From a virus, in IMG/VR virus record IMGVR_UViG_3300028048_000053, positions 34,692-98,691 of that record: a stretch of DNA of 64,000 bases; one strand, given 5' to 3'. The notes below the pieces were generated by a model. The model saw nothing but the letters and a program-made list of their open reading frames with translations. It was not told the origin of the DNA and searched no databases. The number at the start of each line of letters is the position of its first letter. The stretch's first letter is position 1. Of this stretch, positions 59,436-61,652 are shown piece by piece. The position numbers and the translations under genes were made by a program.

Positions 59436-60259
59436 CTATATTATATATTTTACTAGGTCTAATAGCGGGTAGTCTTGGGGTATATCTGCTATTAAGGCCC
59501 AAATTAAAATTAACAGTTTAGAAAAATCTTGCTATTGAGTAGGAGAACCAAAAGCTTGAAATCGAAAATGCTAATTTAAATAGCATGAAGAAAGATAAAG
59601 AAGAGTTATTGCACTAGGCCGAAAAAGAATATCTTGCCATGGGTGCCAAAAGAGAGGAAATAAGAGAATCTCTTGAGAATCTAAAGGAGACGCAAACCAA
59701 GGCTGCTGACGATATTTTTGTTTTGGCGAGACAAAATGCTGAGTAGGCTTTTGATAATGAAGTTGAAAGAATTAATCAAGAGCTAGAAGCCAATAGAGAG
59801 CAAGCCGACAAGGAATACAAACAAACTTTAAAAGAGTTAGTTGAAGATTTTTCTAAAGAGGCTGCGGCCGCAGGTTTAGAGCTCTCTAAGCTCAGACAAG
59901 AGTTGGCAGAAACAAAGTCTATAGTAGATAGCGCGGTTGCCGACCGCAAACGAGCCATCGAAATGGAAGAAAAAAGCGACTTTTATAAGCTATAGCTATC
60001 TCACGAAGATATATAGGAGATAGCTAAATTAAGAGAAGTATTACCCTATCTCCGGGACAAAGAGCCTTTAAATAAGGTTATCTATAAAGTATATTATGAA
60101 AAGCCATATACCGATTTGGTTGGCCGAGTATTAGGATAGGGTAAGCGCACTGGTATTTATAAAATTACCAATACTAAAAACGGTATGTGTTATGTGGGAC
60201 AAGCGGTCAAATATCGGCCGGTGAAAAACTTTTCCTAGTTGCTGCTAGGGGTCATTTAA
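59432..60259 (+). CDS. membrane-anchored coiled-coil protein; its last roughly 35 codons encode an N-terminal GIY-YIG motif fragment
   Basis: N-terminal TM helix (MTILYILLGLIAGSLGVYLLL), long coiled coil, then ...GKRTGIYKITNTKNGMCYVGQAVKYR; about 8 in-frame TAG; TAA 60257-60259. Confidence 0.45.
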
Positions 60260-60369
60260 TATTAAATGGCTAACGAGGAATGATATTAAAATATAGAATC
60301 TCGTGGGAAATTTTGTATAATTCATCTTTCACAAGCTTTAAATAGATATGAAGGGTGGTTGAAAATAAC

Positions 60370-61275
60370 ATGATTACAAATGTTAAAGATTTAACTAATA
60401 ATACAGGGATTTATAAAATTAATTATTCTAATGGTAAAATTTATATTGGATAGGCTCTATCCTTTAGAAGTAGAGCTAATGAGCACAATTCAAAAAACGC
60501 ATATCCTTGTGACAAAGCTTTAAAAAAATATGATGCTGTAATGGAGATATTACAAGAAAATATTCCCATAGACTAGTTGGACATTCTTGAAGAATTTTGG
60601 ATTTCAAAATTTAATGCCACAAATAAAGAAATAGGATATAATATTTTATCTGGTGGAAATGCCAGTGGAAAACGTGGAATTGAAAATTAGAACGCAACGT
60701 TTAAAACTCAGGAAGAATTAAATGAAATATTAAATCTAATTATAAATCATACCGAATTGTCATATGATGATATAGCAAAAAGATTTAATATAAATAAAAA
60801 TACTGTTTTAAATATTGCAAAGGGAAATACTTACAAACAAGAAAATTTAAAATATCCATTACGTTTAAATAATCATGATTGTCTTAAAAAAGATAAAATA
60901 AGTGACTATTTTGAAACGGAAGAACAATTAATTTTATTTAAAAATGATTTAAAGTTTCGATGGGATTTATCCTTAGAAGAAGATATTCCAAATAAATGGA
61001 ATATTCCAAAAAGAGTTTGTAGACAAATCAACCATGGAGAATTATTTAACGAATACGGGACTTTTACGTATCCAATTCGCTCTAAGTCACATAGCCTAAT
61101 GGATTAGCAATAGATAAAAAATATATTAAATTCATTAAGAACTACTAGTAAGTCCATGGAAGTGATAGGTTTAGAAAATGGTGGATTACATAGAAACACT
61201 ATTAGTTAGATTAATTTAGGAAAAAAATATCCAATAAAAGGGTATGATTATCCAGCCAGAAAAAAGAAAATATAA
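60370..61275 (+). CDS. GIY-YIG homing endonuclease (about 8 in-frame TAG)
   Basis: TGIYKINYSNGKIYIG-TAG-ALSFRSRANEH ... EFWISKFNATNKEIGYNIL; C-terminal NUMOD-like region; TAA 61273-61275. Confidence 0.6.
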
Positions 61276-61439
61276 TTATACAAAAAACCTGTATCGACTA
61301 TTCCCAAAGTCTTCTGGACCGGGAAGTAGGGCTACTATTAGCACGTAGCTGCATTTTAGGTAACGAAGTGCATTAAATGCCGAAAAGGTTTCCTGTATGT
61401 AATATTACAGTAAGAAATAGTCAAAATTAAAAACAATTT

Positions 61440-61652
61440 GCGATTTACGTGAAAGGTGGCGCCAGCATATCAAGCGCGGTGTCGGCGCCGACCCACCAAC
61501 ACGAAATAAACTCTACCCAGCTATGCTTGCTTTTGGAGTAGAAAATTTTACTTTTGAAATCATAGAAGAATGCTCTGAAGCAGAACTTAATAACAAAGAA
61601 CAGTTTTGGTAGGAATACTTTCACACAAAAGATTTTGGATATAGTATAAAAT
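61440..61652 (+). pseudogene. C-terminal half of a GIY-YIG nuclease lacking its own N-terminal GIY motif
   Basis: RWRQHIKRG...LYPAMLAFGVENFTFEIIEECSEAELNNKEQFW-TAG-EYF..GYS, with no start codon upstream in frame. Confidence 0.4.

Follow-up and report, generated by a model that had tools for sequence, protein, structure and literature searches.

A predicted mobile group I intron with its own GIY-YIG endonuclease gene interrupts a conserved GIY-YIG nuclease gene of a phage that reads TAG as sense

We analyzed a 64,000-nucleotide stretch of DNA from an uncultivated gut phage (positions 34,692 to 98,691 of IMG/VR record IMGVR_UViG_3300028048_000053), here called the window. On its plus strand, from 59432 to 61654, lies a host gene interrupted by a 1,233-nt insert at 60208 to 61440. 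Under the standard genetic code this region is a string of fragments. Under the correct code it becomes a truncated gene, an endonuclease gene, and an orphan open reading frame (ORF), and recognition of an intron turns it into one conserved gene for a 329-aa protein. The components are as follows.

59432 to 60207, plus strand: exon 1, encoding a hydrophobic N-terminal segment, a coiled coil of ∼200 aa, a conserved linker, and the first half of a GIY-YIG domain (GIY...YVGQAV)
60208 to 61440, plus strand: predicted group I intron, 1,233 nt (a multiple of 3), phase 2, starting CAAAUAUCGGCCG and ending ...CAAUUUG
60370 to 61275, plus strand: intron ORF of 301 aa, ATG at 60370 and TAA at 61273 to 61275, with a GIY-YIG domain at residues 13 to 86
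61441 to 61654, plus strand: exon 2, encoding the second half of the host GIY-YIG domain, and the stop codon

In the frame at 59402, with TAG as a sense codon, the host ORF runs from the ATG at 59432 to "GIYKITNTKNGMCYVGQAV." Unspliced, this frame continues into the insert as far as a stop at 60258 to 60260; the residues KYRPVKNFS... after GQAV, counted as coding in an earlier note on this DNA, are intron read-through and not exon. The host frame is picked up again downstream as (C)DLRERWRQHIKRG...FGYSIK, and its TAA (61652 to 61654) places the end of the gene at 61654 rather than at 61652, as previously given. The whole host gene contains eight in-frame TAG codons, seven of them in exon 1.

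The two halves are one gene. With the insert removed, they encode a continuous 329-aa protein that aligns without gaps to uninterrupted homologs (12 aligned; more than 100 overall), one of which (P0002) is identical to the spliced product across the junction. The Pfam GIY-YIG profile matches residues 241 to 317 of this product in one unbroken stretch, and the alignment of its catalytic domain to the I-TevI structure (PDB 1MK0; E = 6.7e-6) crosses the exon junction. Exon 1 ends at U60207, after the second base of the codon for Val259, and the predicted junction reads ...GCG GU/C GAU..., or ...YVGQAV-DLRERW.... The predicted ligated exons consist of ...CAAGCGGU followed directly by CGAUUUACG; the junction-spanning form is GGGACAAGCGGT followed by CGATTTACGTGAAAGG. 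Both exons in the window are free of frameshifts and premature stops, and inspection of the exon 2 sequence revealed no start codon or ribosome-binding site of its own. Most intron-bearing copies retain a full-length spliced host gene ending in ...GYSIK, and because the same position within the same codon is interrupted in 13 or more distinct lineages, the split arrangement is not due to chance. The proposal made in the earlier note, that a GIY-YIG gene is split by an intact, different GIY-YIG gene (60370 to 61275), is borne out by the restored frame.

The host protein belongs to a family of more than 5,000 homologs with one common architecture; thousands are full length, and many are exactly 329 aa long. 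Its gene is found in the same place, downstream of a DNA ligase gene and a pair of small ORFs, in all seven related loci examined. The fusion of a membrane anchor and coiled coil to the GIY-YIG domain, correctly noticed before, is common to all aligned homologs; it is native to the protein and no by-product of the insertion. The likeness to I-TevI is limited to the catalytic domain (TIGR01453; PDB 1MK0 and 1LN0): the GIY, YVG, R, H, E, and N motifs all align, and the C-terminal 90 residues score 71.4 bits against TIGR01453 (cutoff, 56.05), but the match covers only profile positions 2 to 87 of 215. The linker, zinc finger, and DNA-binding domain of I-TevI are absent, and the host protein instead has the N-terminal hydrophobic segment, the ∼200-aa coiled coil, and a conserved linker (LREVLPYLRDKEPLNKVIYKVYYEKPY) before the domain; Pfam detected the catalytic domain only, with no recognizable DNA-binding module. 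Unlike the sporadic I-TevI-type genes, the host gene is conserved and syntenic. It lacks the marks of a free-standing homing endonuclease gene, namely sporadic occurrence, variable location, and a DNA-binding module, and it is not a typical homing endonuclease gene. Of the earlier description of an intron within a homing endonuclease gene, we therefore keep the intron, which has a ribozyme fold (see below), and drop the second part. Possibly, the host is an I-TevI-type nuclease that has been domesticated and tethered to the membrane and that serves a core function in large gut phages, thousands of which would carry it. Weak matches were also seen between the host protein and the C-terminal part of the defense protein UzuA (E = 3e-8).

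The intron ORF is preceded by a purine-rich stretch (GAAGGGUGG) upstream of its ATG and contains six in-frame TAG codons. Its product matches Pfam PF01541 (E = 4.4e-9, 37 bits; cutoff, 22.6), PHROG 7168, which is annotated as a homing endonuclease, over nearly its full length (E = 2e-19), and, as the closest solved structure, the I-TevI catalytic domain (PDB 1MK0; E = 7.5e-4), in an alignment that takes in the GIY, YIG, R, E, and N motifs. TIGR01453 scored 44.3 bits (E = 2e-11), below its curated cutoff of 56.05. A weak helix-turn-helix signal accompanies the catalytic domain, and 173 homologous protein clusters were found. The GIY-YIG domains of the host and the intron ORF are only 34% identical, so the inner gene is different from that of the host. 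We predict that it encodes an active homing-type GIY-YIG endonuclease. Searches of IMG/VR with the endonuclease protein or with a 26-mer found no close copies. Likewise, megablast of positions 40000 to 64000 against GenBank phages gave no match, and the hits to the GyrA-like subunit in a protein search did not exceed 36% identity. Endonuclease-like ORFs are also present elsewhere in the window, at 55138 to 55935 and 58506 to 59435.

The non-ORF portion of the insert amounts to 162 + 165 = 327 nt, and not to about 276 nt as estimated previously. The following elements of a group I intron were assigned to it, all on the plus strand.

60204 to 60220: P1 with the internal guide; exon bases CGGU (60204 to 60207) pair with GCCG (60217 to 60220)
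60226 to 60233: P3 5′ strand, AAACUUUU, pairing with AAAGGUUU at 61384 to 61391
60234 to 60270: two hairpins between the P3 5′ strand and P4, CCUAG/CUAGG (60234 to 60249) and GUCAUUUAA/UUAAAUGGC (60251 to 60270)
60273 to 60304: P4 enclosing P5; ACGAG (60273 to 60277) pairs with CUCGU (60300 to 60304)
60305 to 60322: 5′ strands of P6 (GG, 60305 to 60306) and P6a (UUUUGUAUAAUU, 60311 to 60322)
61274 to 61291: 3′ strands of P6a (AAUUAUACAAAA, 61274 to 61285) and P6 (CC, 61288 to 61289, within AACCUG)
61296 to 61301: P7 5′ strand, GACUAU, in the invariant family string AACCUGUAUCGACUAU, pairing with AUAGUC at 61417 to 61422
61302 to 61372: peripheral helices between P7 and the P3 3′ strand, typical of subgroup IA, comprising P7.1 (UCCC, 61302 to 61305, with GGGA, 61321 to 61324), P7.2 (GCUAC, 61331 to 61335, with GUAGC, 61345 to 61349), and an extra hairpin (UGCAU, 61350 to 61354, with GUGCA, 61368 to 61372)
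61384 to 61422: P3 3′ strand (61384 to 61391), P8 (CUGUA, 61393 to 61397, with UACAG, 61406 to 61410), J8/7 (UAAGAA), and P7 3′ strand (AUAGUC, 61417 to 61422)
61424 to 61440: P9, a short A/U-rich hairpin (AAAUU/AAUUU), followed by the terminal G61440

The splice site lies at a U60207-G60217 wobble in P1. Adjoining the P1 guide, the P10 guide AUCG (60213 to 60216) pairs with CGAU, the first bases of exon 2. All four P1 pairs are present in 13 of 13 distinct copies, and in one of them (L151) two pairs have changed together (GCGU/GCGC); P10 forms at least 4 contiguous base pairs in 12 of 13 copies, as CGAU/AUCG, CAAU/AUUG, UAAU/AUUG, or CAGU/ACUG. In all 13 lineages (14 loci, 13 distinct copies), U is the last base of exon 1 and G the last base of the intron. 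Double compensatory changes were found in 10 of the 13 pairs of the two P3-P4 hairpins, in 7 of the 12 pairs of P6a, in 9 of the 14 pairs of P7.1, P7.2, and the extra hairpin (P7.1 and P7.2 both covary), and in 3 of the 5 pairs of P8; in P4, one A-U pair has become G-C in 3 of 12 copies. Counterparts of the group I intron P and Q elements are seen in "GCUAACGAGGAA" and "AAUCUCGUGGGAA," and an alignment of Rfam model RF00028 to an ORF-less relative (L038) places the same strings as P4 and P6. P6a (12 bp) encloses the ORF, with its 3′ strand overlapping the ORF stop codon; in relatives without an ORF it caps a short loop. As judged by eye, the sequence of P9 differs among copies (AAAUUAU/AUAAUUU, AAUAUAA/UUAUAUU), and the hairpin is missing in some.

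Two core helices do not vary among the copies at this site. P3 is invariant there, but in a fixed-window comparison across the wider family cognate strands paired better than noncognate strands (P = 2e-5), a modest effect (mean, 6.0 versus 5.4 bp), and 37 different pairs of strands that form 7 bp or more occur family-wide. An alternative P3, UGGGAA (60305) with UUCCCA (61303), was dropped since UUCCC covaries with the downstream GGGAA as P7.1, and the P3 that Rfam gives for L038, which uses the 3′ strand of the second hairpin, includes noncanonical pairs and cannot form in the window. P7 is invariant in all copies, so that covariation is uninformative about it either way. Its assignment fits on the grounds of position and homology: it agrees with the R and S elements in location as well as in sequence, and GACUA and AUAGUC of L038 are aligned in the same way by RF00028. 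The earlier suggestion that GACTA and TAGTC form P7 was right about the pairing, though the motifs lie at 61296 to 61300 and 61418 to 61422 and not near 61292 and 61398.

The structure as a whole was evaluated over 12 aligned copies. Cells at paired positions are paired in 95.7% of cases, compared with 35 to 46% when partners are slid; 33 of 70 pairs show double changes, and the covariation score is 0.38 versus 0.12, with 0 of 500 shuffles reaching either observed value. RNAalifold, given no prior structure, recovered P1, P4, P6/P6a, P7.1, P7.2, and P8, with compensatory double changes in 35 of 77 pairs. A covariance model (R1) built from 57 relatives located in other genes matched the window at 61286 to 61450 (62 bits, E = 1.1e-9), a score partly due to a shared string, as these relatives had been gathered by a 16-mer that the window also contains. 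RF00028 gave no match in the whole window at its gathering score (50 bits), none in 60100 to 61700 at an E of ≤10, none in the loci of ten relatives at the gathering score, and none in an ORF-less copy at the same site (L152; 3.9-kb and 331-nt searches). It does align over its full length to two ORF-less relatives, L038 (40.9 bits, E = 3.6e-9) and L120 (25 bits, E = 2e-4), in both cases below the 50-bit cutoff and only when they are searched as 430-nt stretches. Over 109 nt, the intron core shares 82% identity with Enterococcus phage EF1 sequence that separates the two fragments into which a DNA polymerase gene is split. We conclude that the flanks of the ORF probably fold as a phage-type (IA2-like) group I ribozyme core. 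Of the two findings named beforehand as counting against an interrupted gene, fragments of unrelated origin and the lack of a ribozyme fold, neither was obtained. An intein was excluded by the different reading frame of the insert and by the stops within it, and a group II intron was set aside since the core matches group I.

An alternative explanation for the split gene could be that a free-standing homing endonuclease gene inserted without an intron, a situation known from nrdA of Aeromonas phage Aeh1, which is split; the host would then be a pseudogene or be translated as two separate fragments. Endonuclease-like ORFs are numerous in the window, and the exon 1 frame does reach a nearby stop. 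However, exon 2 has no translation signals, and two chains, one of them lacking such a signal, would be unlikely to reconstitute a GIY-YIG domain divided between the YIG and Arg motifs. Moreover, the 327-nt flanks are better conserved than the ORF and their helices covary, which only a structured RNA explains. The guide sequence covaries with both exon ends, and flanks are kept whole in derivatives that have lost the ORF. We give almost no credence to an intron-free insertion. Loss of splicing, by which a structurally intact group I intron would have become inactive or lack a factor, the host gene would be inactive in this phage, and the arrangement would be a decaying remnant of invasion, also seems quite improbable. 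The failure of RF00028 on the window's own copy would agree with it, as would the degraded or deleted endonuclease ORFs of some relatives, which indicate that decay occurs in the family. Against it, all core helices are intact in the window's copy and pairing is nearly complete across the 12 copies, the exons are undamaged, the endonuclease ORF is full length, and exon 2 is 94 to 100% identical to that of an intron-less relative, suggesting a recent and still functional state.

Relatives of the intron differ in the state of the ORF, which is intact in some, degraded in one (L154), and deleted except for its last ∼30 nt in two others (L140 and L148); two further alleles lack the intron (L001 and L002). 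Sporadic presence at one target site and decay of the ORF are thus both seen, and the relatives represent every stage of the homing cycle. There is a recombination breakpoint at the intron insertion site. Exon 1 is ∼95% identical to L001 and ∼75% identical to L002, while from 61441 to at least 62721 the identity to L002 is 94 to 100%, and the switch from L001-like to L002-like sequence falls within ∼15 nt of the insertion site in this comparison of two contigs. The L001-type junction reads CAAACCTTAAACGGACAT. It is possible, if somewhat doubtful, that this switch reflects ordinary modular phage recombination, or an effect of the endonuclease-like ORF at 58506 to 59435, rather than homing, an explanation that bears on coconversion and not on the identity of the intron. 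The likeness to L001 covers exon 1 only and also stops at the gene start, near 59406 to 59455, beside that upstream ORF; only two contigs were compared; and nuclease genes generally mark boundaries of phage exchange, according to PMC10448857. The position of the right-hand breakpoint argues for homing, since repair of an endonuclease-initiated double-strand break would place it there.

With the gene anatomy, the restored frame, the covarying RNA structure, the family membership, and the breakpoint all directly observed, we put at about 0.9 the probability that 60208 to 61440 is a mobile phage-type (IA2-like) group I intron, inserted in the region coding for the catalytic motifs and predicted to splice and to home. 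The whole gene would be transcribed as a single pre-mRNA in which the 327 nt of non-ORF intron form the ribozyme core (P1 to P10) and the ORF is looped out of P6a. An external guanosine would attack after U60207, positioned in P1 by the guide GCCG, and the freed exon 1 would then attack after G61440, with exon 2 held in P10 by the neighboring guide AUCG. Ligation of the exons would produce the mRNA for the 329-aa protein with its membrane anchor, coiled coil, and GIY-YIG nuclease domain. The product of the intron ORF would be a separate GIY-YIG endonuclease that cuts intron-less alleles of coinfecting relatives, and repair of the cut allele would copy the intron along with flanking exon sequence. 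Because in-frame TAG codons occur in both the host gene and the intron ORF, each would be translatable only when the TAG suppressor tRNA of the phage is active. A tRNA with an extra arm, possibly of the Ser type, is located at 12869 to 12962 of the window.

An intron with its homing endonuclease is a textbook kind of mobile element and, on good support, not new in kind; the locus leaves the known workings of group I introns and homing endonucleases unchanged. It resembles the IA2 introns of phages that carry GIY-YIG ORFs (T4 td/I-TevI, Twort orf142, and SPO1-type DNA polymerase) in its site within a conserved catalytic-motif coding region and in the placement of P7.1 and P7.2 after P7 and before the P3 3′ strand. 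As in td, the peripheral helix P6a carries the looped-out ORF, and CGACUAU...GGRAGUAGGG...CGAAAUGG...AGAUAGUC is similar to the core of the Twort ribozyme. It differs from the known IA2 introns in its host gene, in the two extra hairpins between P3 and P4 and the one after P7.2, in scoring below the Rfam gathering cutoff, and in the in-frame TAGs of both its ORF and its host gene; its P9 is a minimal A/U hairpin, whereas that of most relatives is capped by GAAA. To our knowledge, the two hairpins between the P3 5′ strand and P4 are absent from the classic td and Twort structures. The family marked by AACCUGUAUCGACUAU is abundant in gut phages, with more than 100 diverse copies collected from many genes. 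Given its two covarying P3-P4 hairpins, it may represent a structural variant of the IA group that has yet to be described. Since a large family of gut phage introns escapes the curated Rfam threshold, the intron content of phage metagenomes is probably undercalled.

A recoded group I intron endonuclease has been described from an alternatively coded gut phage of the Agate clade, where it lies in an early gene, together with the proposal that recoding delays production of the endonuclease (Borges et al., bioRxiv 10.1101/2021.08.26.457843). The present case is similar in that a large recoded gut phage carries, in a gene of its replication module, an intron endonuclease with in-frame reassigned stops. 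It differs in that TAG rather than TGA is recoded and in that the host is itself recoded, so that host and endonuclease would be gated alike. As both depend on suppression of TAG, splicing and homing would be coupled to the switch in the genetic code of the phage. We regard three of these ideas as rather unlikely, namely, an undescribed IA variant, a domesticated membrane-tethered host nuclease, and splicing and homing tied to the code switch. With all stages present among relatives and a breakpoint at the target site, the locus offers a clean, naturally occurring illustration of the homing cycle. The same logic of code and intron recognition that restored the host gene also restores a 616-aa topoisomerase subunit at 50692 to 51946 of the window.

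On the sequence, we read exon 1 and exon 2, which flank the insert, as one gene. The elements of the locus are as follows.

59432-60207, plus strand: first part of the host open reading frame (ORF), from the ATG at 59432 in frame 59402; hydrophobic N-terminus MTILYILLGLIAGSLGVYLLL, then ~200 residues, then GIYKITNTKNGMCYVGQAV
61441-61654, plus strand: second part, same frame, (C)DLRERWRQHIKRG...FGYSIK, ending in TAA at 61652-61654
60370-61275, plus strand: intact inner ORF, 301 amino acids (aa), ATG at 60370 to TAA at 61273-61275, in a frame other than the host's
60213-60220, plus strand: internal guide AUCG-GCCG, pairing with both exon ends
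60311-60322 with 61274-61285, plus strand: P6a, the 12-bp helix enclosing the ORF; 7 pairs covary

The ~200-residue middle of the first part is charged and rich in heptads, and no start codon precedes the second part (from 61441). Joining U60207 to C61441 gives a 329-aa product for which a search of a large protein collection found >5000 homologues; a length of exactly 329 aa is common among the best 120. The junction is ungapped in an alignment with 12 homologues, the homologous protein P0002 is identical over YVGQAVDLRERWRQHIKRGVGADPPT, and Pfam GIY-YIG matches residues 241-317 in one unbroken stretch. The alignment with I-TevI likewise runs through the junction (host CYVGQAVDLRERWRQH, I-TevI VYVGSAKDFEKRWKRH). 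An earlier note had described matching N- and C-terminal fragments around an intact second GIY-YIG gene, and both points were confirmed; the noncoding flanks total 327 nt, not ~276 nt as it had counted.

The inner protein matches Pfam GIY-YIG (E = 4.4e-9) and, nearly end to end, PHROG 7168, annotated as a homing endonuclease (E = 2e-19); among solved structures, the I-TevI catalytic domain is nearest (1MK0, E = 7.5e-4). With only 34% identity between them, the inner and the outer GIY-YIG domain are assigned to different lineages. Homologues of the inner endonuclease (173 clusters, 55-63% identity) sit at this position of the host gene in all contexts fetched. With additional same-site copies collected by pattern scans of public collections, the arrangement is known from 13 distinct copies. 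Each has an exon 1 that ends ...GU, two bases into the Val codon after GQ(A/S), and an intron whose last base is G.

TAG must be a sense codon, since otherwise the locus does not read through. It breaks conserved motifs in both the inner ORF (YIG-TAG-A) and the host gene (FW-TAG-EYF), and plus-strand ORF coverage of the window rises from 58% to 84% once TAG is read as sense. The presumed suppressor is the following tRNA.

12869-12962, plus strand: tRNA with anticodon CTA, 94 nt

Its extra arm is ~22 nt, its first pair is G1-U72, and it carries G73. Bacterial tRNA-Ser is recognized chiefly by a long extra arm, and TAG might in light of this arm be decoded other than as Gln, the customary reassignment in recoded gut phages; the Gln in our translations is an assumption. 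Where the window has TAG, homologues mostly have E, Q, K, or N, with Q, TAG, or I at the single conserved TAG site, and the I-TevI residue aligned to the endonuclease TAG is Ser. The RNA conclusions are unaffected by which amino acid TAG encodes. Sixteen tRNA genes, all on the plus strand, are clustered at 340-14113, including two adjacent tRNA-Gln genes (TTG and CTG) at 10862-11012.

Contrary to the reading in the earlier note, the host gene is no typical homing-endonuclease gene. Ahead of the nuclease domain, every aligned homologue has the hydrophobic N-terminal segment, the coiled coil, and a linker, LREVLPYLRDKEPLNKVIYKVYYEKPY...GRV, that does not vary; because all share this layout, the membrane coiled-coil region, noted earlier as an in-frame fusion, is native architecture. 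Gene neighbors are the same in the 7 related contigs examined: a GyrA-like topoisomerase subunit, a DNA ligase, and two small ORFs upstream, and small ORFs, a YorF-like gene, and an AAA_24 gene downstream. A thymidylate-synthase-like gene also lies downstream in the window and in the related contig L002. No DNA-binding module was detected in the host protein, and its likeness to I-TevI is confined to the catalytic domain. It matches TIGR01453 at 71.4 bits over profile positions 2-87 of 215 and, weakly, the nuclease part of the defense protein UzuA.

A group I fold had been proposed for the flanks, and it was found, with covarying helices and a splice-site guide. The noncoding flanks are better conserved than the ORF, and their substitutions are compensatory. 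Applied unguided to 12 same-site copies with the ORF trimmed out, RNAalifold recovered P1, two hairpins, P4, P6/P6a, P7.1, P7.2, a further hairpin, and P8, with two-sided changes in 35 of 77 pairs. Pairs were then counted on the full assigned structure, including the P3/P7 pseudoknot, with shuffling and sliding of partners by 1 to 3 columns as controls. Standard pairs filled 95.7% of cells (82.5% shuffled, 35-46% slid), 33 of 70 pairs changed on both sides (shuffle mean, 18.8; none of 500 shuffles reached 33), and the covariation score was 0.383 (0.120 shuffled, with none of 500 shuffles attaining the observed score; at most 0.096 slid). The 3' strand of P6a overlaps the ORF stop codon.

The guide fixes the splice sites without recourse to protein alignment. 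Its GCCG pairs with CGGU, the final four bases of exon 1, leaving a U-G wobble at the splice site, and its AUCG pairs with CGAU, the opening four bases of exon 2; one guide for both exons is the group I manner of exon alignment. P1 has 4 of 4 pairs in all 13 copies, and in L151 (exon GCGU, guide GCGC) two of these are altered on both sides. P10 has at least 4 contiguous bp in 12 of 13 copies, in the combinations CGAU/AUCG, CAAU/AUUG, UAAU/AUUG, and CAGU/ACUG, and reaches 8 bp in L148 and L042.

The sequence AACCUGUAUCGACUAU, covering J6/7 and the P7 5' strand, is the signature of a large intron family present in >119 IMG/VR loci (among them L011-L129), in many different phage genes and often without an ORF. 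Nearly all share the downstream plan P7.1, GAGUAG, P7.2, GAAAUGG-P3', P8, UAAGAGAUAGUC, and a GAAA-capped P9. Some contigs (L021, L087, L120, and L149) carry two copies. P7 is invariant and so beyond the reach of covariation; the strands assigned to it are the GACTA and TAGTC proposed earlier, placed here at 61296 and 61418. P3 is unchanging among same-site copies; family-wide, it averages 6.0 bp in cognate versus 5.4 bp in noncognate strand pairings (P = 2e-5), 33% versus 19% of which reach at least 7 bp, and it occurs in 37 distinct combinations (e.g., GCUACUUUU/AAAGGUAGC and GUCGCUUUU/AAAGGCGAC). Two hairpins that covary separate the P3 5' strand from P4; we know of no counterpart for them in classic structures.

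The Rfam group I model RF00028 aligned over its full length to two ORF-less family members, L038 (40.9 bits, E = 3.6e-9) and L120 (25 bits, E = 2e-4), both under its curated cutoff of 50 bits, and placed P4, P6, GACUA, AAGAnAUAGUC, and P9 in agreement with our structure. It matched neither the window nor L152, an ORF-less copy at the same site, and none of 10 family loci tested reached the gathering score; group I membership, if judged by a match at that cutoff, would be denied. R1, our covariance model of the 3' domain built from 57 members in other genes and contigs with same-site copies left out, matched the window at 61286-61450 (62 bits, E = 1.1e-9), a score partly due to a shared 16-mer. 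Given P7.1, P7.2, and a core that we take to resemble those of Twort and td, the intron belongs to subgroup IA, nearest IA2. No close relative of the phage was found among GenBank phages. Prevotella Lak megaphages (MK250015-MK250028) share 61 nt of the core at 79-87% identity, and in the cultured Enterococcus phage EF1 a stretch separating two pieces of a split DNA polymerase gene shows 82% identity to the core over 109 nt.

All stages of the homing cycle are represented among the relatives. The ORF is intact in the window, L004, L006, L007, and others; in L154 the intron is full length with a longest ORF of only 68 aa; and L140 (3312-3615), L148 (minus strand), and L152 carry ORF-less introns at the identical position of this host gene, the first two of 304 and 319 nt. 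Because the ORF-less introns retain the final ~30 nt of the ORF (...DYDYPARK-stop) in the P6a loop, they reflect internal deletion and not independent invasion. The intron-less relatives that the earlier note had recommended for comparison were found in L001, L002, and most homologues.

The window's host gene is a mosaic of L001-like and L002-like sequence: exon 1 is ~95% identical to L001 and ~75% to L002, and from ~10 nt before the insertion site through 62721, where the L002 contig ends, identity to L002 is 94-100%. A breakpoint at this site is the expected trace of repair started by the endonuclease and accompanied by co-conversion, and we give this origin a probability of about 0.65. A generic modular exchange between phages, unconnected with homing, is the less probable source. 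It would suit the left edge of the L001-like tract, which is the gene start, beside another endonuclease-like ORF, and one report (PMC10448857) describes nuclease genes as general markers of exchange boundaries; the comparison, moreover, rests on just two contigs. Against such an exchange, the breakpoint falls at the intron insertion site, as expected under co-conversion. Exon 1 has its closest relative in L001 (92% overall protein identity), which at 1769-1790 has YVGQTLNGHERFRQH in place of YVGQAVDLRERWRQH (window 60195-60207 plus 61441-61460). This sharp difference falls precisely at the intron target, which in L001 could be an endonuclease-resistant allele or simply the mosaic's other parent.

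Phage genes interrupted by group I introns that carry GIY-YIG endonucleases are a textbook subject going back to T4 td and I-TevI; at this locus we infer splicing and cleavage. In a gut phage that itself uses an altered code, an early gene has been described as holding a recoded intron endonuclease, with recoding proposed to delay endonuclease production (Borges et al., bioRxiv 10.1101/2021.08.26.457843), and our locus shares with that system a recoded intron endonuclease in a gut-phage gene. New here are a host gene encoding a conserved membrane-anchored GIY-YIG protein, TAG recoding in both host gene and endonuclease, and an intron family missed at Rfam's threshold.

Further elements lie upstream in the window.

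49378-50691 and 51947-52483, plus strand: exons 1 and 2 of a GyrB/ParE-like topoisomerase gene
50692-51946, plus strand: second group I intron of the same family, 1255 nt, interrupting that gene
50870-51823, plus strand: GIY-YIG ORF in the second intron, 317 aa
55138-55935, plus strand: endonuclease-like ORF, 265 aa with TAG as sense, resembling a free-standing endonuclease gene
58506-59435, plus strand: endonuclease-like ORF, 309 aa with TAG as sense, likewise resembling a free-standing endonuclease gene

In the second intron, the exon 1 end GGGGU faces the guide GCCCC, the last base is G, and R1 matches the 3' domain at 51807-51946 (85 bits, E = 5.7e-14), again with a contribution from the shared 16-mer; the predicted spliced product is 616 aa (...LAIRGK|IINA...). 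The 309-aa ORF overlaps the host-gene start codon and has no counterpart at this position in L004-L010. It shares with the 265-aa ORF a C-terminal domain (YDFAI...IEFDGEQH...IPY), which DUF2726 matches weakly and under cutoff in the longer ORF (E = 7.5e-5) and no Pfam family matches in the shorter; both also contain repeated cysteine motifs (FGxLTV...WxCxCDCG...SCGC).
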